DNA of 20,000 nucleotides. Source: Psammoneis japonica (Eukaryota). The stretch covers positions 371,470 through 391,469 of the forward strand of contig QPGO01000074.1 in NCBI GenBank assembly GCA_008632985.1. The letters run 5' to 3'. Position numbers and translations under genes: made by a program. Shown in pieces: positions 6,180 to 20,000 of the stretch (positions within the stretch are counted from its first letter, which is position 1; each line of letters begins with the position of its first letter). A model generated the notes under the pieces. That model was not told where the DNA came from. It did not search any database and saw nothing but the letters and a program-made list of their open reading frames with translations.

Positions 6180-7268
6180 TTAATGATGGAGTTTGGCCTT
6201 TAGAATCTCCAGGTGTCTTTCGTAACGAAGTTGGTAATTCTCCGAGTTGCCTAATGTCTTGGCCTTGGATATCAAATTTTCCAAAGCTTTGACGTGAGCT
6301 GTTTCCAGGGCTTGTTCTTGGGCCACCTTGATGTCCGGCTCAACTCCTGTTCCTTCCCAGTTGGTTTTGGTAATGGGATTGATGGCTCTGCCTTTGGGAA
6401 CCCACACGACAAAACGGTCCGTCGCAATCTCGACTCCACCGGGATGCGCTCCTCCGCCGGTAGTTTCTCCCACGATTACGGCCCTCTTCAGGTTTTTCAG
6501 ATTGTATGTGAATTCTTCCGCGGCCGAAAACGTGCGTTTGCTGGTCAAAATATAAGCTTCGGCGTTGGACCCAATCCTCTTGCCGGGGACATGAGGCAAC
6601 GTCGAAAAGTGTTCCATGGTATCGTCATCACGCCAATAAAAGCTGTTGAGGTGTACGGGTTTTTGTTCGGCATCATAGAGGTAGCTGGTGAGCAACTGGA
6701 TCATTGTTGGGCAACCACCATTGTTGTTTCGGAGATCGAAAATGAGGGCGTTGCAGTTGGCCACCAAATTCATGGCGGCAACGGCCGTTTCTCCCGCGAC
6801 TTGGGCTGCTGAGAAACTGCGAAGATCAATATAGCCTATGTTGCCCAACAGAATCTTGATTTCCTTGAAACCAAAGTTGCCAAATCGAAGTTCTTCGAGC
6901 AGACTTTCAGAAAGTTTTTCATAATTATCGTCAACATCATCTTCCTTTTCTTTTTCCGTCTGAGCCCGTATTTGTTGCACATTGCCGGGGTCAAAATCAA
7001 CGCGAAGATGCCCGTCGTGACTCACGGATTGCAAATCCTTTGTCAACCTGTCCGCATAGTGGCGAGCGTCGACCAGAGAGCTGTATTTCTTATCATTCAC
7101 ATTCTGCTCTAGCAGGGCAGCCATCTTTTCGGCTACGTCCGGAAATACGTATTTTTCACTGAGCAATCGGTTGATGCTTGTGACGACTTCTAGTTGCTCT
7201 TCTTCAGTGACTGCCACGTCTGCGGCGGTTGCTTCTGGCACTTCATTCGCTTCTTGGTCGGCCTTCAT
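6180..7268 (-). CDS. S41 family peptidase (IRBP-module-like), 362 aa, intronless
   Basis: Motifs YVFPDVA, LTKDLQSVSHDGHLRV, GNIGYIDLRSF, LIFDLRNNNGG, TFSAAEEF (catalytic Ser region), VGETTGGGAHP, NWEGTGVEPDI. Start taken at MKADQE (7268). Confidence 0.93.
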   Translation of the reverse strand: MKADQEANEVPEATAADVAVTEEEQLEVVTSINRLLSEKYVFPDVAEKMAALLEQNVNDKKYSSLVDARHYADRLTKDLQSVSHDGHLRVDFDPGNVQQIRAQTEKEKEDDVDDNYEKLSESLLEELRFGNFGFKEIKILLGNIGYIDLRSFSAAQVAGETAVAAMNLVANCNALIFDLRNNNGGCPTMIQLLTSYLYDAEQKPVHLNSFYWRDDDTMEHFSTLPHVPGKRIGSNAEAYILTSKRTFSAAEEFTYNLKNLKRAVIVGETTGGGAHPGGVEIATDRFVVWVPKGRAINPITKTNWEGTGVEPDIKVAQEQALETAHVKALENLISKAKTLGNSENYQLRYERHLEILKAKLHH

Positions 7269-7825
7269 GATTTGCACGTGGAACAATACAACGTTGTCAA
7301 AACACAAAACAATGGTACGAGAAGGACAACAAATGCTCGTGGTTTCTGCGTTGTTGCAAGCATCAGATGAATCAATTATGCAACACTGCTGCTGAAACCA
7401 AAACAGTAGCAACGTAGTGCACTGTGGATGCCAAAAAGTGAGAGACAGAGGTTCGAACGTGTTCCATCAAGTAGGGCCTTCCATGATCCAAGATCTGGAT
7501 TCGATCGACGAAAAGATCGCGGACCGGGCGGGTTAGCGATGTTTTGTTCCCGTCTCAAGATTAAAATTCCATGTTTTATATATCCAAAATTGACTATTGT
7601 ATTAATTTGTTACCAACTTATTTACGTGTATGATACCGTATGAAAGGAAATGATTGTGTCTTGAAAAGCCATCAACACGAATGGTTTTTCTGTCCATTCA
7701 CGATTCAACTCCTCCCGCTCGGAAATTGCGACGTGGAGCCTACCTCCGAGCTATGGACATGGACAAAAAAGAACGGCCAGTGGCGCTTGCGAGGCCAACA
7801 ACAAAGTGGTTGTATACAATACAAG

Positions 7826-9283
7826 ATGATTGGACGCCATAGCATCATTGGACACCGTCGTAGTTTAACCTCTTTGGAACGTGATCCGTTGCTCCCGCCA
7901 CCACACCATCCTCATCACGACCATCGCCCGAGTCAAGCACGTCGAGCCTCGTTGGCAAACATAACTGCGAATCATGAAGAGGGAGAAGTTTCCGTTGTGG
8001 AGCTGTTTTCTGACCTTGTGGTGGTTGTGGCTCTGCATAATTTGTCAGATATGCTCGGTGAAGGCACTGTTGGTTTGCACATGTATTTTTTTCAAGTCCT
8101 TCTGCTCTGGTGCCTCTGGCACAACTGTATTCTCATGATGAATCTGGCCAACATTTACACGGCCAACGAACCAAAAACATGGCATCACATTGTAGTGTTT
8201 ACCGTTATGGGATCAATTGTATTCATGACAACGTCTGAAAATCCTCTTTCCATGTTGATCGCCTTTTGGGTGGGAAGAGCCGTGCAATTGGTCGCCGTTG
8301 TAGTCATGGGAAACTCGAAACGACCCGTCTGGGTCGATCACGAGTGGCATGAAAACATGGTAAATCTATGCTTCGTTGTGATTCCCTTCAAGGCACTTTT
8401 AGAAAGTGTACCTCTTTTGGTCACGTTGTCTGTGTTGCAAAGTGACCGATTGGTGTTACTTGGCGGCGTAGTCTCGGCTGCTGTCGGCATTGGTTTCCAT
8501 TTATATTCTGCAAACATGCACGATGTCGTAGAAAAGGAACGGATGGGTTCAGTCAAAGTACTGGACGTTGAACACCTCACGGAGCGGCATGAGCTCGTTG
8601 TACTCATTCTCTTTGGTGAATTGTGCTTTGCCGCTGCATCATCGTCGGGCGCATATTACATGTCGCTTTGCACTCTCTTGACCGTCTTTGGGTGCTTCTT
8701 GTTGTACTTTGCAACACGTGTACCGGAGCGCCAGGAGCCTTGGACGCGATCGGCAGTGACAAATGCGCTCTGTCAGTACTTTCATTTGCTTTTGATGGGT
8801 GTTATGCCTCTCATTAGTGTCGGATTCACTAGGCTCATTTTGCATGCAGAAGGCAAGGAAGATGATGACAATGAACACGATGGTGTGGCGGCATTGCATT
8901 TCGCCACGGCTGGCTTCTTGTGGGTCATGGGACTGATTGACTTGATTGCTGCTGACCCCGAAAATCCTCGCAAGCAACCTCGATGGAGAAGGAGATATCG
9001 GCTGCTTCTTAGATTTGCAGGTGGATGCATCGTGGCCTTACTCTATTGGCTCCCTAGAAATTCAGATGTTGTGGCAGCGACCATTGCACCCTCTACGTTG
9101 CTCACCGTGGCCGCTATTGAGATGTGGGCCGTGCAGTTGGTTGATGTTTCTCTCGAGGATGATCCACAGCCACCGGGTTTGTTAGGGCGCAGTCGACGAT
9201 TGGGTGTGCTGTCGGACAATTCATTAGATGCGTCGGGCAGGTCAGTCGACGACAAAGATGATGGCGTGTCAAATCACTCCTAA
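7826..9283 (+). CDS. LtrA (low temperature requirement A)-like multi-pass membrane protein
   Basis: EVSVVELFSDLVVVVAL and EHLTERHELVVLILFGE match the LtrA-family ELFxDLVFV and HLxERxxLxxIIxLGE motifs. Many hydrophobic segments. Start uncertain (7826 preferred over 7640). Confidence 0.8.
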   Translation: MIGRHSIIGHRRSLTSLERDPLLPPPHHPHHDHRPSQARRASLANITANHEEGEVSVVELFSDLVVVVALHNLSDMLGEGTVGLHMYFFQVLLLWCLWHNCILMMNLANIYTANEPKTWHHIVVFTVMGSIVFMTTSENPLSMLIAFWVGRAVQLVAVVVMGNSKRPVWVDHEWHENMVNLCFVVIPFKALLESVPLLVTLSVLQSDRLVLLGGVVSAAVGIGFHLYSANMHDVVEKERMGSVKVLDVEHLTERHELVVLILFGELCFAAASSSGAYYMSLCTLLTVFGCFLLYFATRVPERQEPWTRSAVTNALCQYFHLLLMGVMPLISVGFTRLILHAEGKEDDDNEHDGVAALHFATAGFLWVMGLIDLIAADPENPRKQPRWRRRYRLLLRFAGGCIVALLYWLPRNSDVVAATIAPSTLLTVAAIEMWAVQLVDVSLEDDPQPPGLLGRSRRLGVLSDNSLDASGRSVDDKDDGVSNHS

Positions 9284-9611: not shown

Positions 9612-9956
9612 CTAGACCTGCCAGAAACCGCAGTCAATTCCACCTTGAATTACAATGGCAAAGATTCCCTCGCCCGGTATCTCCATTGGATCCATGGCAA
9701 CTTTTGCTCCGGCCTTAACAGCCGCCTTGACGGCAGCATGAATGTCCTCAACAAGCATGTACGGTCGCACAACTGGAGTTTCCGTTTCCCGCATGGGCAT
9801 GCGAAGCCCAATCTTTCCTCCATTCAAAAAATCTGCGGTTCGGGCCCCACCAAAATTGGCATTGGGCTCGCTAAATGTCACACCGTGAATTGCCGAGTAC
9901 TGCTCGCACAAGGCATCAACTTTTGATGTGACAATCTCAAGATAATGGACTTTCAT
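9612..9956 (-). CDS. VOC/glyoxalase-bleomycin-resistance superfamily protein, 114 aa, bacterial-like
   Basis: MKVHYLEIVT...VVRPYMLVEDIHAAVKAAVKAGAKVAMDPMEIPGEGIFAIVIQGGIDCGFWQV has the typical VOC C-terminal pattern. Confidence 0.88.
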   Translation of the reverse strand: MKVHYLEIVTSKVDALCEQYSAIHGVTFSEPNANFGGARTADFLNGGKIGLRMPMRETETPVVRPYMLVEDIHAAVKAAVKAGAKVAMDPMEIPGEGIFAIVIQGGIDCGFWQV

Positions 9957-10699
9957 GGGCGTCCCTTTTTGTTGATGAAATCGAATTGACTGTCGAATCA
10001 ATAATAAACAGCAGAAGACAAGCCTATCTTCAATCTCAAGAATCTGCAACAGTAGAATGGCAACAAAGCAAAAAAAAAAAAAAAGATCTTTCGCAAGATC
10101 CACCAGCTGTCGTACCGGTACCAGCAATCAAGAAAAAAATGGCCAAAGAGCGCATTCACCTAAACTGTAACAAAAGCTCTATCGTGCCTTTGACGACTCG
10201 ATGACAGGATCCATCGCATCGGTCCGCCACCATGGTTGTTGTTGGTCCAGCTGCAAAGCTGTGATGCTTGCCATCTTGATCGGCAAATTCAAAGTCGGCC
10301 TCACAATGTCGCTGCTCCCTGCTTTCTTCCACATGGTGGTGCGTGGTGCTCTCTGCGATTCTGAAGCAGCCAGCTGCTCCTTCATCACAGGCAGCCCAAC
10401 CTTCTCAATGCATTTGAGTTGCTCATCGATTGCAGATTTTAGTGGGCATGCCCCATCAAACCCTGCACAAAGCTCCTGCAGTGTCTCTCTGGTGACACCA
10501 GCATGATCAGCACAAGCCAGCGCAACAAGAGAGCTGTGTTTTCTGACGTGAGCTGGCCTGGTGGCTGCTTTGCTTTTTCCACTGGAGCCACCACCCCGCA
10601 TTTCCTTCTGACAATGGGGAGAATGCCAAACTTCTTTCAAGATTAATGGCAGATTGGTTCTGGCCACCAAGCATCTTGCATCATGACACCACACTTTCA

Positions 10700-11727
10700 A
10701 CTGTGATTCAGCGCATCTTTCATTCGCTCGTCATCCGCTTTGATGCTGGACTTCCTGCAGCCACCAGCCATGTTGTCAAATGAGTCTAATGCAAAATTTT
10801 CTTTGTTGTCAAGGAGCTGCAGGACTCTTCCTCTGCTTTGCTGCTTCTGCAAAAATCTGCTTGGCTTTCTCATTGGGGAATGACTTTTCCAGGCATGGGA
10901 GCAAACCAGAAACGATGAAGCGGGCATTGGCAGAGTTGTGTGGAATGAAAGAAAATGTGACTGTGTCATCTTCTTGCTGGCATTGGTTGTCATGGTGCAA
11001 AAATCAAGCAAACCATTTGCCTCACAGGAAATGATCAGTGAGTGGAGAGAGTCGATTTTGACACCTTGCGGGGGGGGGGGGAAGACCAACCCTGCAATTT
11101 TGCAGGATTGACGTTCTGCAGCATGCGCTGTTTCCATGATGTTGTCACAGAAGTTTTTCTGATTGTCGCGGAGCCTCTTGCACTTGAACTCACAGTTTGC
11201 TGTTGCAAGGAATTTGTTCGCAGGGATGAAGTGTGCCCAAGTGTCAAGAGGAAACTCAACAGCCATGGATGAGCAAATGTCAGACACAGCATTGATGGCA
11301 TGGTTGCAGTCTCTTGTTCATGAGCAGCCTCATCATGAAGGATGCACGTGGGGTTCCTTCACTTGCACGCAGTCATTGTTGAGTTAAATCCTGGTCTTCC
11401 AGAGGCAATCACATGCCAGCGGAGGTCAGCTCTGCTCTTTTTCCATGTTTGGTCTAGATGCCTGCAAAAGTCAATCCGTCTAAGTGTTCCACATGAAAAT
11501 GCTGCGTGCACTGCCAGAAGATGCACAATTTATGTTCAAAATTGATTGTCGTTTTGTGCGTCACCGGGACCAGAACACGTCAAACAGCCATCCAATGTTG
11601 GGAGTTTTCTCAACATCTGGGGCAGCATGGAAATGAAGCCCATGTGAAGCTGCACTCAGCTCAGGTTGGGTCTTGTCAGTGAGTGCATTTGCACTGATTG
11701 TGGAGGCCAGAAAAATCAAAGCATGGT
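10700..11727 (-). pseudogene. Decayed repeat-associated ORF (possibly non-LTR retrotransposon ORF1-like), 3' part, interrupted by the LTR element
   Basis: Protein-like fragments in shifting frames: ALIFLASTISANAL..NIGWLF, SDICSSMAVEFPLDTWAHFIP..KRLRDNQKNFC, TVTFSFIPHNSANARFIVSGLLPCL. Family assignment is from recalled resemblance only. Confidence 0.35.
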
Positions 11728-11731
11728 GCAT

Positions 11732-12200
11732 TGAAGCAGGCATCCCTGCCATGTGGCTGCCAATGATGCCACTTTCCTGCGTCTGCAGGCTGTCCGCAGC
11801 AATGCTGATCCCGCAGAAGCATGTTGTAGAAAACACGACTCCCAGTGCAAGACCTGAGACAGGCTACAGGAGTGACCCACGCGACTGAGACCAGCGCGAC
11901 TGGCCATCGCGCACGTGACTCACCTTGCATGAAGGGTCTGCGCATCGCGCAGGATGCAGGGCCCTGCGCAGTGCCGAGCATGAGCCTGCGAATTGGCTCC
12001 ACATGAGTGTCAATGAGTGCCACAAAAGACTTGTGCTTGAGTCTTTCCAATGACTCATCATGCAACAAGAATTCTTGTTTCTTAGAAAAGAACACCATCG
12101 CGCATTTGTGCTCTAACTAAAACAATCTCATAATTTTCACAACACCCAAATCTATCTCTGCAGCGTTGCAAGCACTTGTTCCCCATTTCTGCATGGGTCA
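11732..12200 (+). repeat. 5' LTR (469 bp)
   Basis: TGAAGCAGGCATCCC...CTGCATGGGTCA; aligns end to end with 13700-14213. Confidence 0.92.
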
Positions 12201-12218
12201 TGGCGACATTGCTCCCGG
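12201..12218 (+). promoter_or_regulatory. Putative primer-binding site
   Basis: TGGCGACATTGCTCCCGG begins immediately after the LTR-terminal CA; TGG is complementary to tRNA CCA. The cognate tRNA is not identified. Confidence 0.7.
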
Positions 12219-12248
12219 CAAGTGCAAGAACAGTTTGCTTGGTTGACA

Positions 12249-13436
12249 ATGAAGGTCGGACAAACAGCGCTTAGCGCATTCATGACACTGGCGGTCGTTC
12301 CACCGATTGCCTTTCAACGTCCGGTCCCCAGGGTTCTGAAAGAGAACCAAAGTCAGACGTGCAAACTGCACACGAACCCAAATGACCCAGATGGTCCTGC
12401 GCATGAACTTGCGGTCACCTGCTTCTCGGCGCAGTCACCTGAAGAATGGCTCCTTGTTGTAAAGGACTGTGACCGTGCATGCATCAGGCAGAACATTGCG
12501 ACAGGACCCGGTGAATTTTTGCTCACAAGAAGGCTGTTAGAGGGTGATGCCCTTGCTGCCTTTGACAATGCAGCGGCGAACGAAAATGCAGAAATGGCAA
12601 TGTTGTTGGCATGTTGCATGGCTGCTGTCACCAAAAGTGTTTTCCCAGAAAGGGCTGCATTGACACAGAAGTGCCGTTTAAGGCATTTCATGCAAAAGCC
12701 GTTAGATGTCAAAATTCGTGAGCATGTCACTCGTGCCATAGAAATCAATGAGTGCATTCCAAAATTTCCACCAGTTGAAGACAATGGACAAGCTCCGCAA
12801 GTGCCATCCGAAGATGAGTTGGTTGATTTGTTGGAATGTGGCATTCCACGGCTGTGGCAGCGCCAAATGAAGTTGCAAGGATTCAATCCTTTGGCACACA
12901 CTGTTCCAGAATTTGTCTCATTCTGTGAGCATGTGGAAGAAGTTGAGGCTGCTGACAAGCTCATGGCCTCTGCCTCACCTCAAGACGACCCTGAAGACGC
13001 CAAGATGAAGTCAGCAGATGATCCGATTCCACGCTAACGATCAAGTTCCAAGAGTCCTGCACCAAGCGAGTTGATGTCGGCAGCAAAGGAGTGAGTTTCG
13101 ATGATGTCAGATGGAAAACGTGGTCACCCATGCATGCTTCACGGTGCATGCAACCCCAACACTGACGATTGTTGGTCTCTGAAACGTCAGGTCAAGAAGC
13201 TCAAGACTTTGGATGCACACAGATCCGAGTGCAAGAATGCGCACAAGCGTGACACTGGCGCAAGCAAGGAAGAAATCAACATCATCATTGAACAAGCCAC
13301 AAAAAATGCATTGAAATGTGTGGCACGTGATGACGCGAAGGCAGACAGTGAACTTCATGCCTTTGACAACGCATGCCTCTCTGAAGATTCTGATGCTGAC
13401 ACCGATGATGTGGCAGCAACGAGTCTCCAAGAATGA
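12249..13436 (+). pseudogene. gag: Mutated gag with two in-frame stops (TAA 13035, TGA ~13092) and a degenerate C-terminal Zn-knuckle
   Basis: KLHTNPNDPDGP..SPEEWLL..QNIATGP..RRLLEGDALAAF..VFPERA..KP..EINECIPKFPP..DELVDLLECGIP..WQRQMKLQGFNP..EFVSFCE resembles diatom gypsy gag. ORF 13101-13436 is in the same frame and carries CMLHGACNPNTDDC. Confidence 0.85.
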
Positions 13437-13690
13437 TGGCCGACATGGCAGTGACCTGTGCAACCCCAGTGGCTTGGACAATTTGACAAATGTCCCAATG
13501 CTCCTGAGTGCAGCACTCACTTGTGCATGTTCTGCTGCAGGCCACACATGGCAAAATGTCCAGTGAAATGGCAACAATGACAATGACATCCTTCATGCAT
13601 GAGAAGGCATGTGCGCTGGTTTTTTGGACACACCAACAATGTCCTTTTTCCAGCAGTGGGACCCTTCTGTCACTCATGCGACCTTGTCAC

Positions 13691-13699
13691 AGGGGCGAG
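13691..13699 (+). promoter_or_regulatory. Polypurine tract
   Basis: AGGGGCGAG lies immediately 5' of the TG that starts the 3' LTR. Confidence 0.7.
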
Positions 13700-14213
13700 T
13701 GCAGCAGGCATCCCTGCTGTGGCCGCCGATGATGCCACTTTCCTGCATCTGCAGGCTGTCCGTAGTGACGCTGATCCCACAGAAGCATGTTGTAGAAAAA
13801 ATGACTCCCAGTGTGAGCTGTCTGCAGCGATGCTGATCCCGCAGAAGTGTGTTGCAGAAAACACGACTCCCAGTGCGAGACCTGCAATGGGCTGCAGGAG
13901 TGACCCATGTGACTGAGACCGGTGCGACTGGCCATCGCGCACGTGACTCACCTTGCATGAAGGGTCTGCGCAGGATGTGCGCAGCACCGAGCATGAGCCT
14001 GCGAATTGGCTCCGCATGAGTGTCAACAAGTGTTGCAAAAGACTTGTGCTTGAGTCTTTCCAATGACTCATCATGCAACAAGAATTCTTGTTTCTTAGAA
14101 AAGAACACCATCGTGCATTTGTGCTCTAACTAAAGTGATCTCATGATTTTCACAACACCCAAATCCATCTCTACAATGTCATGAGCACTTGTTCCCCATT
14201 TCTGCACAGGTCA
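13700..14213 (+). repeat. 3' LTR (514 bp)
   Basis: TGCAGCAGGCATCCC...CTGCACAGGTCA. The length difference from the 5' LTR equals a +62 bp duplication and 17 bp of small deletions. Confidence 0.92.
13755..13878 (+). repeat. 62-bp tandem duplication inside the 3' LTR
   Basis: 13755-13816 and 13817-13878 both read GCTGTC...GCTGATCCC...GACTCCCAGTG.GA; the unit is single-copy in the 5' LTR. Confidence 0.9.
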
Positions 14214-14217
14214 GCAT

Positions 14218-14450
14218 GATTGGTTTCCCTCAACAGTTTGGGCAAATGTGGCTTTAAAGTCCTTTTGTGGTTTCACACTGTTGCAAGGGGTGTTGCTTGG
14301 GGAAAAGATTGCTGGGTCTTTGCTGTTGGCAGCACAGGCAGCAATTGCCAAGGTGGAGTCTCCTTCATCTTGGAGGATTTTGAAGAATTCCAGGCACGCA
14401 AGCTTGTCGCAGCTCCTCATTCACATGAGAGTGGGGTTTGATGGGTTGTC
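14218..14450 (-). pseudogene. Upstream part of the decayed ORF interrupted by the LTR element
   Basis: LEFFKILQDEGDSTLAIAACAANSKDPAIFSPSNTP..DFKATFAQTVEG runs up to the TSD. A 1-nt shift is needed to join HHALIFLAST on the other side. Confidence 0.35.
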
Positions 14451-16054
14451 CTTGATTTTGTGGTTCATGGCAGAGGTGATGATTGCACTTGATTGCAACA
14501 GCCGTGTTTGCATTGGATTGCAAAAGGTTTCAGCATTGCAAGGGGGGGGAGGGGGAACTCCTCAATGATTGTGGCAGAGTTCTCATTGTCATGAGCCAAA
14601 GTCATCACATGCCATTTGTGTTGGCTTGTTTGTGCACATTTTCTGCAGAGGGTGCACCAGTGAGGAGCATTGCTGTTGCACCATTGTTTTTGATGATGGG
14701 GGTGCAGTTGACCCTGGTGTGTTTGCTGCATGGCTTGAGGTTGGTGCGGGGAGGAGGCATTGTTGAGTGAGGTTGAGATGTTCCTGTGCAAAAGAGCAGC
14801 AGAAACCATGGGAAGTGTGCAGGACTTCAAAGCATTGTTGTCCACTCTGCCAAAAAGTGCAGGTCAAGCCCAACATGGTGATGCTCAATGCATGGCTTCT
14901 AATCATGCACAGCTGGGGTTCAGCAGTCAAGCTGCGGCAGGTTCTGTGCAGTCACGAGTCAAACACAGGATGTTTGAGCCTGCATTTAAGGTCTCTCTGC
15001 AGGGCTTCAGTGCTTGCATGGAATCATGGTGCTTAAATTGTGCAGGCCAGCCCCAGCTGCAATTGGGGTCCCTGAATGAAAATCAAGTCCAGCATCAGCT
15101 TCATCTTTGTCAAGATCAGCTGTGCACTCATGAGCAATTTGGTGGTGATTTTCCACATGGTTGGTTGAAGACTGGCTGGGTTGAGCATGGCAAGGTGGTT
15201 GGCCTCCTTGGCTCATGGCACAGAAGAAGAAGATCAACCAATCCACAAGCGCACATGATGAGAAGTTTTTCTGCTCTCAGCTCATGGTGGAGACAGTGCC
15301 GAAGCTCCAAAACTCAAATCCCAGAACCTCTCGTGCCAAACAGGAGTGTCAAAGGGGCACTTCTCTTGGCTGGGCTCCTTTGTGCTTTGTGGCTCAAAGC
15401 AGCTCCAGTGGCTGGGGTCCAAGAAGTCAACACACTGCTTCTCTGGGCTGCTGCACAACAATCCCCTCCTTCTGAAAATTTGGTGTCATAAATGCGCACG
15501 ATCGTACGGGTCAAATGGTCTGTCCATCAAACGATTTTCGATTTCGGCTCTGGCACTTGTTTCCCATGGAAGTGGTGGGGTCTGCGTGCACTTCTACGCA
15601 ATGCATGCTAAGAATGCTGCCAACAAATCACTTTTCCCAAGACACTTCATGGCGTTGTTGACCACTGCTCCTGCCTCACGCTGAAGCTTTCCTGCCTGTC
15701 CTTGGCATTGCAGCACTTCTTTTCATCACAATGGTTGTCAACATGAGTGAGTGTGAAGAAGAAATGGAGTCAATTGGCGAGGAAGACCTGGAGCCGCTTG
15801 ACCACAATGAGGCACTGCCGCCAAGCCTGACAGCTCCGAAACATTTGAAGATCGCCTGACAACACAAGGCATTTTACACGGAAGCTGACATGCCAGACAA
15901 AGGATGCAAATGCTTCCGAGTGGAAGAACCAGAAATCTTTGCGTGAGAGCTTCAAAGTGCCAAGGAGCGGAAGGCAGTGGAACAATCAACCATCGCATTG
16001 TGCTTTTCTGATTTGTCTTGTTCGGTTTGGTCCGGCAAGTTCAGGCTTGCACCA

Positions 16055-17233
16055 TCAGATGATGGCAGCAATTGGTGGTTGAATTGATTTGCAAAACCAT
16101 CTCAACAACTGCACTTCTGGTGTCTGGGTCTCTTTCATTGCGTTGAAGTCTTTCTCATTTAAGGAATCATTGAACACAAGAACAGCCTTCACATGAATCA
16201 GAATGAGCAACTTGAGATTCAGGAAGTTGGACTCCTTTGCAAGGAAATGCATTTTTGCAAGAGCATCTGGGTCTTCACAATTTTCATCAAGCAGATTTTC
16301 TTGTCAACTCGGGGGGCTCGGGAGAGCTTCTTGTTGCCACAGTGATTCGATGCTAACTCTTCTGCCGGCATCTGCCGGTGTGCCATCACCGACCATGCAT
16401 CAAACCCTGCTGCATCTTTGCCATGCTTTATTTTTAGTTCTGCATTGTCCACCATCAGCACAAGCCCATCTCCAGGCGCAAATTTTGCCCTGGGCTCAAG
16501 GCAGGCTGCAACAGATTCAGAAGCCTTTGCAACACCAGCCACCAACACAGATGTTGTCACTTTGAAGTTGGCAAGAGCATCTCACCAATGAGTCGCCTTG
16601 TCTTCCTTGCTTGTTCATCGTCTCCACAAAAGCGTTCACATCAGTGCCATTGACGGCAAATGCAAAAACAGACAGTGGCAAGGCCGTTCTGTTTTCTTCT
16701 GACATGAGGTGTTTGAGTGCATTTTTTGAGCTCATTGGGTCAGCCCCATTTCCTGTCATAGCCGCAGGCAAGAGCACGGACAACATGTTCTTGAACATTT
16801 TCGCAACAGTGAGTTTGGTTTGATTGTCATTTGCAGTGATGTCTCCTTTTCTATTGATTGCTGCAAATCCAACTGGGGTGTGTAGCATTTTGCCATCCCC
16901 ATCTGTTTCAACTGCCGCTTGCTCCGCAAGTGGCAGGCCATCTGTTCTGATTGTTCTTGATGCGGTGCCGTCATTTTGTTTCTCCCGGAGGAACTCCAAT
17001 GTTTGTGACTTGGTGGGGTTCCTCTTTTTCTTTTTCTTGACAGGAGCTGGGCATTCAAACTCGACTTCACTTTTTTCCAATTCACAATTTCTCTTTTGGA
17101 TGGTGCGAACTGTCGTGTGGCTGGTGGCGCGTTGATCACAATGCAGTGGGCTCTGGGATGTCTTTTCCACTGGCAAACGAACCATGAGTGAAGACAAATT
17201 TTGCAGCCTCAAGGAGTCAGAGTGACGATGCAC
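16055..17233 (-). pseudogene. Decayed coding-like sequence of unknown family
   Basis: Consecutive minus-strand ORFs (16517-17233, 16219-16560, 16055-16252) have protein-like composition, including the basic stretch PVKKKKKRNP, and no Tyr. No domain recognised. Confidence 0.3.
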
Positions 17234-18041
17234 TCCTCCTCTTGCTCCTCAGCACATTCAACACCATGCAAGTGACATTTTCAATTGTCGTCGTTGTTGT
17301 CGTAATCCGCTGGGGTCGCAACGAGATGGTGCAGGGAAGAAAGAGTGGCTTCACTTCTCCACTTCACGATTTTGAAAATTTGATTTTGGTGTGTTTTTAC
17401 GCACAAGTCTACAATCATCTGGGATGTTCTCAATCCAAGAATGCGAGCTTGGAGAGCTTTCTTGGGTCTCATGAGGGCCACAGGACAGAACAGGACATGT
17501 GATGGTGCACCCACAATGATGTGCAAACTCAGCAACGAACCTTCTGGCAGGGCCAGCTGATCAATCCGATGGAGTCAGTCAGAGTGCTTGACAACAAGGG
17601 CATGGAGTGCAATCAGAGGGAAGCACTGATGGTGTCAGAGCTGCAGATGGTTGCTCCAGTCTGGGTGCCCCCACACACATCAAGTTGCCCCAGCAGCTGG
17701 GGGCGAGCCAACCAGCCGAGCTCGCGTGCACACGGAGATCCAAGTGCCTTCCTGATGCACTGCCTGGATGACCACTCCAGAGCAGCACCTCAGACAGAAT
17801 GCAATCAGAGAGCATCTGCTGATGAGCAGCAGCAGCAAGAGCCCAGTCAACAGCTCAACAAAACTGCCAGTGCAGCCAAATCACAAGCTCTGCCCAAACT
17901 GGATCTGCTGAATGTTCCAAAGCAAGGTTCTCCCACACACTTGTACCAGAGACCAGTGCAAGTTTCAGGGACAACCATCTTCACAACAATCAACCAAGTG
18001 CTGCTGAAACAATCTATGGTGGTCCCAACATGTGCCGGTAG

Positions 18042-20000
18042 ACGGCCTGTGATCCGCAAAGCAACGAGCTAGAAATTCAGGGCGACCGGAAGATTGGGTC
18101 GGTGGACAGACGACCCTGGAGCGAGGCAACGCCAACGAACACAAACCCCAGCCATGATGATGCAAGCAATCGCGACGAGTGGCTCTCTCAGATCAAGGGG
18201 GAAATCCAGGATGAATTGGGCGCTGCATGGCGTGAAAGCCGTTGGACGGAGTTTATTGAGGAAGTATTGTGGTCCCTGCACGAGAATGATATCGTTGACG
18301 GAGACACGATTCGCACCGCCGAGGGCCTTATCAAGTGCGGAGTACGAACCAAGAAGCATCTGATTGCAATGGCCGGAAAGCCTCCCGACGATGAAAAATT
18401 GTCGAGAAAGCTTGAGGCGAAAGGCGTGTCTCTCGTCATCTGCGCTATGTTGTTCAACGAGTACGTCCATGTGAATCGAGATGGTAAGTCTGACTGGCGT
18501 TGTACATATTGAATATGTGTCAAACATACTGTACAGTATCTCGTTCTTGGTTTCTATTGTTCCATCGCATATACGGTTTCAACTATAAAAACTCATCCTG
18601 ATTGTACTTGTCTATTCTTTTCAAAGTAGCTTCACTACAGCAGCAGCAGCAGCGGACTGGCATGTTTACTGTCTTCGTGAGAAACCACAATTTGTCAGTC
18701 ACGAATGTTATTAAGTTCCACGATAAGCGTTTTCCATCGACTGTGGGTGAGTTCTGGGAGGCGACAGGCCTTGAATGGACCGTTGACTCTGCGTGTGTCA
18801 CGGTAAAAATGCTTATGGGCTGGGAAAAATTGAGCGACAATCCCAAAAATACAGCAAATTATGCTGAGGGTGACCCCAGCTTCGGGATTATGTTTCAGTT
18901 GTCGCCTTACCGTACTCCTACATCAAGTCCTATTAGCGACGAATACATCAGTATCCAGGCCGAGGAGGAGTCGAATTTTGCTGAATGTATCCAAAACTTA
19001 TTTCGCGAGAATCCTTTCAATGCAGCTATACCAGAGCTGTACGAAGACGGGGCGATCCGTGGGTTACGATTGTTCTTCCAGCAGGGAAGAGAAGAAAGAA
19101 CAAGGTCGTTGGCTTCGGAGGTGAAAACGCTTGCTCTGATATTTGCGATGCCTGGGGCAGGAAAGACTCGGACTGTACAAGAAGCAGCTCATAGTCTTGG
19201 TTTGGAGTATCACAGATTCAAGATGTCTAACGCAAACTTGTCCACGATGAGAGAGGTAAGGCAGTTCCTCTTGAAAAGGGTAGCAACACTCTGCGACTGC
19301 GAAACGAATGCGATACCTCTAGAGAGAAAGGTGCTGGTGCTTCATTTTGATGAAATTCAATCAATTATGAGAGCTCCACGTGATGACGGAGACAGAGATA
19401 ATTCCCTTGTGACCACGCTGGCCAAAGAATGTGATGCGTTGATTAACAAACATGGGGAGAACCAACGTTCGTGGCTCAAGTTTGTAATGACAGGCACCAA
19501 TATCTTCTCGGACACACAGATCAATGTGGGCAGTCAAGTGAAAACAGAATTGATACCGATGGGGGGCTCTTTTTCTCATGACTTTGTATGCCAGCTTGCG
19601 AGGAAATATAATCTCATGCCATTTTTCGCTGAAGACAACGAGAAATATCTGGAACGCTGTCGCCAACCGACGCTTTACCGAACGATTTTTCTGTGCTTTG
19701 TGGGACAAACGAGGCGAGGGCATCGCTGATCCCTCCGTTGTGGATGATGCGTATCACTCGGCACTCAGTGCAATGAGTCGACAAATTGCTGGAAACATGG
19801 GAGGAGAAACTATCAACGTATCTTCAGTTGCATGCACTGTCTTCGCAAAGATTCTGGATATCAACTCTGAGATGATAGTCAACGGCATCGCAATACTCAA
19901 AACTGTTCCATGACTGAGAAGTCTTATATTGCGGGTGGCGGGTTCAACGTGAAGGAAATGATGGGGAGCGATATTTCAATCTTCTACCCCGCTGGATGTG
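18042..20000 (+). CDS. Crinkler/RHS-like protein: helical (SAM-like) header, polyQ linker and P-loop NTPase; one intron, apparent frameshifts ~19665 and ~19910, 3'-partial
   Basis: Walker A AMPGAGKT and Walker B LVLHFDEIQ in ORF 18602-19729. The upstream exon (frame open from 18042 to 18483) splices in frame. Coding-like sequence continues in shifted frames (NRRFTERFF..., MTEKSYIAGGGFNV...). Confidence 0.65.
18484..18626 (+). other. Spliceosomal intron (phase 1)
   Basis: GTAAGT donor at 18484, AT-rich body, pyrimidine tract and AAG acceptor at 18626. The alternative TAG at 18629 is also in frame. Confidence 0.75.

Follow-up and report, generated by a model that had tools for sequence, protein, structure and literature searches.

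TpA loss with a preference for a 3' pyrimidine in dead transposons of Psammoneis japonica

A 20,000-base stretch of Psammoneis japonica DNA (GCA_008632985.1, contig QPGO01000074.1, positions 371,470 to 391,469; hereafter the window), which closes contig C74 in an assembly of 91 Mb, contains a 7,860-base block (window positions 10201-18060) from which TpA has almost disappeared. Comparison of repeat copies within this genome shows that TpA was changed into TpG and CpA and not the reverse, that both strands were acted upon, that the change is confined to repeats, and that it has continued since the two haplotypes of this locus separated. The core target is TpA itself; a pyrimidine after the A is a preference, and sites of the form YTAR (Y, pyrimidine; R, purine) are slowed, not spared. 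That this mutation pattern is real we regard as close to certain.

Survival and fate of TpA

The block retains 49 TA dinucleotides, an observed/expected ratio (O/E) of 0.10, with CG at 0.43, CA at 1.77, TG at 1.63 and AT at 0.94. We classed TA sites by the number of strands that present TAY: both in RTAY, one in RTAR or YTAY (one-TAY), none in YTAR. The survivors comprise 25 YTAR sites (CTAA 10, TTAA 7, TTAG 7, CTAG 1), 22 one-TAY sites (11 RTAR and 11 YTAY) and 2 RTAY sites, both GTAC and starting at 15504 and 17943, and an exact count returned zero ATAT, ATAC or GTAT within 10201-18060. The hand count of the initial annotation agrees with these figures throughout. Its expectation of a quarter each of YTAR and RTAY was the wrong background, since the flanks within the window hold 47/210/143 sites (YTAR/one-TAY/RTAY; chi-square against the block, p=7e-13), and the skew is thus stronger than was claimed. 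Per kilobase and relative to the flanks, the block kept 82% of YTAR, 16% of one-TAY and 2% of RTAY sites; TAT (0.06 of flank frequency) and TAC (0.10) are its most depleted trinucleotides, and depletion of TAG (0.32) and TAA (0.42) is milder. Three survivors in the second long terminal repeat (LTR) of an element in the block duplicate sites of the first, and without them the counts are 22/22/2 (p=5e-11).

The same contrast between inside and outside held in a larger sample. Among distinct 500-base pieces of all DNA fetched (those with TA O/E 0.15-0.45 excluded), 460 depleted pieces held 481/379/28 sites and 243 normal pieces 1013/2920/1660, such that RTAY makes up 3% of TA in the former and 30% in the latter. 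The classes are therefore unequally depleted, and the skew towards YTAR is absent from normal DNA.

The fates of individual sites were read pairwise, by comparing little-mutated with mutated natural copies in the same genome. Little-mutated copies of the block's families have a TA O/E of 0.6-1.1 with about 32% RTAY. From the C116 copy to the C107 copy of a putative DNA transposon (94% identical, 2.9 kb), 107 of 277 TA strand-sites became TG with only 2 TA transversions, while the reverse change, TG>TA, occurred at 1/415. Other contexts in this pair changed little (AA>AG 2/491, GA>GG 3/403, CA>CG 9/415; A>G at AAT/CAT/GAT 0.05-0.06), and CG>CA was seen at 20/286. In 13 pairs at least 90% identical, TA>TG reached 321/819 with 8 TA transversions, against 16/1,270 for AA>AG (2 AA transversions) and 17/1,122 for GA>GG; the corresponding CA>CG figure, 76/1,236, is inflated by changes within the reference copies.

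These spectra bear on the possibility that an error-prone polymerase inserts G opposite T while repairing methylated repeats, in the manner of polymerase-eta-like mutagenesis at A:T pairs. Such a polymerase would link TA loss with the CpG decay described below, and a faint A>G bias does exist at AAY (18/816, AAR 9/1,089; p ~0.02) and CAY (41/910, CAR 25/968; p ~0.02). The polymerase-eta signature, however, is described as A>C/G at WA (W, A or T), AA included (PMC4686820), whereas here AA>AG is rare beside TA>TG and transversions are few at both dinucleotides. We consider this explanation improbable.

For the neighbour rule, 142 alignments were chosen for a difference in TA and those to the other haplotype were removed; 88 pairs contribute, with 41,169 bases and 2,792 TA sites, each mutated site being counted once and 246 sites with other outcomes set aside. 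This choice of pairs skews how much loss is seen but leaves product and context unbiased. RTAY sites in this set gave 390 TG and 397 CA outcomes, and hence both strands are changed. TA was kept at 20/807 RTAY, 192/1,332 one-TAY and 119/407 YTAR sites (5/108, 38/190 and 33/67 in pairs at least 90% identical), which bears out the proposal that survival follows the number of TAY targets. TAY had itself been taken as the target motif; it stands as a preference, estimated at 2.3-4.3-fold, and not as the target, since 288/407 YTAR sites were lost as well. RTAY would be erased first and YTAR last because RTAY offers two good strands. That the rule is not absolute had also been noted from differences between the LTRs, and these are present (ATAA at 12132 and ATGA at 14145; CTAT at 12153 and CCAT at 14166).

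An age-independent measure is the choice of strand at one-TAY sites, where changes fell on the TAY strand 753 times and on the TAR strand 387 times (109 and 43 in pairs at least 90% identical). With one vote per reference site, across 8 reference loci, the result was 196 for TAY and 79 for TAR with 29 ties (p=1e-12); in 2/17 reference loci (L115 and L098) changes were slightly more frequent on the TAR strand. A competing-risk fit gives a TAY:TAR ratio of 2.3, or 2.7-2.9 with the 5' base included, and the closest pairs give 4.3 by survival and 2.5 by strand choice, which places the ratio at about 2.5-4. Relative to TAA, the rate is 2.0-2.7 for TAT and 2.6-2.9 for TAC in the 88 pairs. An A 5' of the T makes the change about 1.8-fold faster, so that ATAY is the best context, and an A at +2 lowers the rate. 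Applied to the block, fates taken from pairs without the window give an expectation of 21/25/3 survivors; the observed counts are 25/22/2 (p=0.5).

Strands, haplotypes and CpG decay

TG and CA outcomes are interleaved in every copy printed, and adjacent outcomes fall on the same strand in 1,080 of 2,084 cases (1,043 +/- 21 expected), a small excess (p=0.04). An ADAR- or APOBEC-like enzyme that edits the RNA or cDNA of elements prior to integration could account for this excess, and ADAR prefers U before A (cited in the Bigelowiella preprint, 10.64898/2026.01.13.699255). Nevertheless, both strands are about equally changed within single copies, the terminal-inverted-repeat element of the block is mutated as hard as the LTR elements, and the haplotypes at this one locus are still diverging at TA. 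The interleaved outcomes largely refute such editing, to which we assign only a very small likelihood; together with the like treatment of a DNA-transposon-like element and LTR elements, they point to chromosomal DNA mutated over many rounds, and not to an RNA or cDNA stage.

The second haplotype, covering window positions 9615-20000, is contig C79. The haplotypes differ by 150 events over 7,846 bases in the block and by 7 over 2,520 in the flanks. Within the block, 84 differences oppose CG to CA or TG, 16 oppose CA to TG, 17 involve TA, 16 are other transitions and 17 are transversions; at TA, 17 of about 55 sites differ in the block and 2 of 92 in the flanks (p=8e-7). Where little-mutated copies cover a difference, they carry CG in 32 of 44 cases of single CG differences and TA in 8 of 10 cases of TA differences. 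Both processes have therefore been active since the haplotypes split. CpG decay now dominates, TA being nearly exhausted.

Contigs of a public sequencing run contain the alleles of both haplotypes, each at about half depth, and lack the assembly indels at 19663 and 19898; since the run may be of the assembly's source sample, this argues against consensus error only. A TA-poor origin, selection for YTAR, or long-read miscalls at a modified base could each mimic the loss: some survivors lie at matching LTR positions, the assembly has indel errors, and the platform of the possible source run is not on record. The TA content and RTAY share of the little-mutated copies, the one-way differences, the privacy of the TG/CA pattern to each copy and the presence of both haplotypes in the run all speak to the contrary. 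Composition is already refuted by these observations, and we find explanations of this kind scarcely credible, the least so of those considered.

CpG loss is even across contexts (0.28-0.45), and across 120 pairs it covaries with TA loss (Spearman 0.56). To judge from this context-blindness, it is most likely a slower and separate route, 5-methylcytosine (5mC) deamination in methylated transposons. DNMT5a has been described to methylate CG in the transposons of diatoms (PMC9998398); such methylation would explain the CpG decay and offer a targeting mark, with no action on TpA.

It is conceivable that TpA, palindromic like CpG, itself carries a modified A or T in repeats, whose decay or miscoding would parallel that of 5mC at CpG, in which case the neighbour rule would be that of the writer. 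The covariation of the two losses and the very tight dinucleotide specificity of the C116/C107 pair fit this idea. To our knowledge, no TpA mark of such a kind exists, and the usual eukaryotic context of N6-methyladenine is ApT. ApT is untouched, with an AT O/E of 0.94 and low A>G rates at AAT/CAT/GAT as given above, and far more TA (78-96%) than CG (12-57%) has been lost. A decaying mark is therefore unlikely in our view, if somewhat less so than polymerase error. ApT-directed adenine methylation was rejected in the same way, ApT not being depleted.

CpA was also considered as a real second target, prompted by a 2-fold enrichment of GCGC in the block. TA>CG accounts for only 35/2,581 classified sites, GCGC is not protected from CpG loss, and at 32/44 single CG/CA or CG/TG differences between the haplotypes the little-mutated copies that cover them have CG; a faint trace at most is possible.

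Two of the three flank transitions between the haplotypes are TAY>TGY, at 18447 and 18606, 380 and 540 bases past the right edge; it is possible that the mutator leaks into neighbouring unique DNA, although the numbers are too small to decide. Elsewhere, at L017 and L019, unmutated LTR copies (TA O/E ~1) are set off by sharp steps from the fully depleted DNA around them, as young insertions would be. Normal and TpA-erased stretches alternate every few kilobases in L087-L089 and L095, and 39 of 60 half-kilobase bins of C79:10001-40000, read by eye, fall below 0.15.

Architecture of the block and its neighbours

The block is a nest of dead elements flanked by ordinary genes. Its features are as follows.

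10195..18066, unstranded: block depleted in TpA and CpG; its limits are those of repeat-derived sequence
10195..10810, minus strand: decayed Mutator-like transposase fragment; 74-79% to five copies elsewhere; TA O/E 0.08
10811..11449, unstranded: depleted stretch of unassigned origin; TA O/E 0.02; no paralogue found beyond the other haplotype
11450..11585, unstranded: piece of a dispersed short repeat; 34 matches listed at 78-85%
11732..12216, plus strand: left of two LTR-like repeats in a gypsy-like element with gag only; 87% identity with its right counterpart; TA O/E 0.26
12117..13436, plus strand: broken gag-like frame; 67% DNA identity to C196
13700..14216, plus strand: right LTR-like repeat; 62-base internal duplication; TA O/E 0.20
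14217..15479, unstranded: depleted stretch; TA O/E 0.05, CG 0.12; no clear paralogue except the other haplotype
15480..17413, plus strand: terminal-inverted-repeat element, a copy with an internal deletion; 83-90% identity with C116, which is little mutated
15504..15507, unstranded: surviving GTAC (RTAY), in the terminal repeat, within CGTACG
17412..18066, plus strand: solo LTR-like copy of a second family; 69-72% to repeats paired 7-8 kb apart on six contigs; TA O/E 0.09
17943..17946, unstranded: surviving GTAC (RTAY); GCAC on the other haplotype

The edges of depletion agree with the ends of repeat sequence within tens of bases: on the left the last TA is at 10180 and the next at 10440, with repeat matches starting at 10195, and on the right repeat matches stop at 18066-18070. 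A 983-amino-acid frame in the C62 copy of the Mutator-like element matches PF20700 (E 3e-7). The gag-only element spans 11732-14216 and has about 30 LTR copies in the genome, four of them little mutated; its gag-like frame has Tyr at 1/419 codons, compared with 8/389 in a little-mutated relative, and the C196 relative sits among gypsy-type pol fragments. A Pfam search of six frames inside the block returned no matches, the gag-like frame included.

The stretches 10811-11449 and 14217-15479, for which no clear paralogue beyond the other haplotype was found by searches that miss decayed copies, are the most depleted parts of the block, and all 4 TA surviving in the latter are YTAR. At 11452 the other haplotype carries about 470 extra bases (L086 1830-2301) that match the dispersed repeat family.

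The little-mutated relative of the terminal-inverted-repeat element (L097 3681-6631, on C116) is 2.95 kb long, with terminal inverted repeats of about 66 bases and a 4-base target duplication, and its 385-amino-acid frame has no Pfam match. Such duplications occur in the 3 copies with both ends seen (C116, C107 and C9); the family is probably a DNA transposon. Against C116, in three aligned pieces with 53 clean TA sites, 41 sites of the block copy in RTAY or one-TAY contexts became TG or CA, as did 5 YTAR sites. Near the surviving GTAC at 15504, the changed site 15497 is TA only in the other haplotype.

To the left of the block, a coatomer gamma gene (2-2674) is split over three frames, which, like the indels at 19663 and 19898, likely reflects residual indel errors of the assembly. 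It is followed by a peptidase S41 (IRBP-like) gene at 6180-7466 (minus strand) and an LtrA-family gene at 7634-9283 (plus strand), both of families better known from bacteria. To the right, an AAA-domain gene (18602-19729, plus strand) shows depth raised 3-4-fold in run X1, and joints in run X2 at 18473-18629 skip about 150 bases; this gene probably belongs to a multi-copy family with intron-less or deleted relatives.

Mechanism, related systems and significance

A mutator confined to silenced repeats could produce this pattern by A-to-G conversion within 5'-TA-3' on either strand, at few sites per round and over many generations, until TA is almost gone; it would act about 2.5-4-fold faster where a pyrimidine follows the A and about 1.8-fold faster where an A precedes the T. 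The chemistry would be adenine deamination, A becoming inosine and being read as G, the putative agent a zinc deaminase recruited to methylated or heterochromatic repeats, and the role defence. To this whole mechanism, targeted adenine deamination of silenced repeat DNA as a defence, we assign a probability of about 0.55. The narrower proposal of a dedicated natural DNA adenine deaminase, acting on any repeat class and changing 5'-(A)TAY-3' to TGY on both strands, is more tentative and in our estimate falls slightly short of even odds.

Several points weigh against deamination. Enzyme and lesion are inferred from the mutation pattern, and a lesion on the A of TAY would leave the same sequence as a lesion or miscopy at the T of RTA. 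The copies share history, such that pooled counts are non-independent; the pairs were picked for a TA difference, the reference copies carry changes of their own, and the two-rate model fits only roughly, as the disagreement between survival (4.3) and strand choice (2.5) shows. Finally, the deaminase genes recovered by profile searches (PF00383, PF14437 and PF18778) are of housekeeping types, apart from one orphan APOBEC-like gene whose clade is known for cytosine.

That gene, on contig C2 (L176 1057-2019, minus strand), lies in unmutated DNA and encodes an intact-looking frame of 320 amino acids with HAE...PCxxC; SNAD4, NAD1 and APOBEC_N all score above cut-off, and only one homologue (50%, an unnamed protein) was found among 34 candidates. 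Judged by its sequence, it is a candidate agent of TpA loss or of CpG decay. ADAT2-like and TadA-like genes are also present, which by itself is uninformative. At L175 1330-1791 (minus strand, C151) lies a TpA-erased copy of a host-type gene of the deaminase family, with a local TA O/E of 0.04-0.08; non-transposon gene copies inside such blocks are thus mutated too.

The context had been likened to that of TadA-type deaminases. Native TadA is described as needing TACG, or YTACGAA, in an RNA stem-loop, with a C>T change at +1 abolishing editing (PMC12255301). The likeness holds for the T (or U) directly 5' of the A, and C is among the favoured bases after it. It fails elsewhere: TAT is nearly equal to TAC, the substrate is DNA, A and not a pyrimidine is favoured two bases upstream (~1.8-fold), and TACG, tried as a motif, is not preferred (0.60, beside 0.58 for TACA, 0.60 for TACT and 0.53 for TACC), which leaves the TadA motif unmatched and counts further against our reading. 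Amphioxus ADAT2/3, a tRNA deaminase, can deaminate A in DNA, at TCG and GAA sites (PMC10354150) as opposed to TAY here. Like amphioxus ADAT2, with its N113, the ADAT2-like protein of this genome has, by eye, an N at the equivalent position. That N is common in ADAT2 proteins and does not single this gene out.

The closest known system is that of Bigelowiella natans, where de novo TpA>TpG/CpA hypermutation, at a rate raised about 1000-fold and in some lines only, affects integrated nucleocytoplasmic large DNA virus (NCLDV) and virophage DNA, an A-deaminase is proposed but not shown, and transposable-element domains are enriched among TpA-poor genes (Mettrop et al., preprint of 2026, 10.64898/2026.01.13.699255). 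Both cases involve TpA>TpG/CpA transitions on both strands, confined to foreign or mobile DNA (here with two inner stretches of unassigned origin). They differ in that here the genome is diatom-like, the targets are transposons of both classes, CpG decays jointly and a neighbour rule applies; depletion is near saturation here (O/E 0.10) and reaches 0.45 in B. natans, whose rate was measured de novo and ours read from copies. The main text of the preprint contains no mention of trinucleotide, context, flanking, CpG or diatom, and its supplementary Table S2, on the 231 mutations, may hold flanks. A literature search on neighbour rules at TpA and on cases in diatoms, with most subscription journals outside its reach, found only this preprint relevant.

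Repeat-induced point mutation (RIP) of ascomycetes, to which the preprint also refers, changes C to T and so creates TpA. It resembles the present process in making transitions on both strands of repeats, with a dinucleotide preference and sharp edges, and differs in that TpA is here removed and not gained (TG>TA 1/415, as above). RIP needs a homologous duplicate; in the present block the strongest depletion lies in the two stretches for which no clear paralogue was found, by searches that would miss decayed copies.

In summary, the TpA>TpG/CpA change itself is already known from what is reported of B. natans, and the neighbour rule is the new addition. New here are fates read directly from copies of high identity, a measure of how strong the preference is, the effect of a 5' A, the failure of TACG and a haplotype pair with recent activity. 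Since Tyr and stop codons are erased, long open frames in such blocks are not evidence of genes, and TA content is usable as an age or insertion clock in the dating of repeats. Natural A-to-G editing of genomic DNA is scarcely documented, and the measured rule (TA required, 3' pyrimidine 2.5-4-fold, 5' A ~1.8-fold, no TACG) can be used directly to screen candidate enzymes and to test for identity with the Bigelowiella process. If the proposed deaminase is real, it would be a mirror image of fungal RIP that a distant alga shares, and the natural equivalent of engineered adenine base editors; its TAY fingerprint could then be used to find it.

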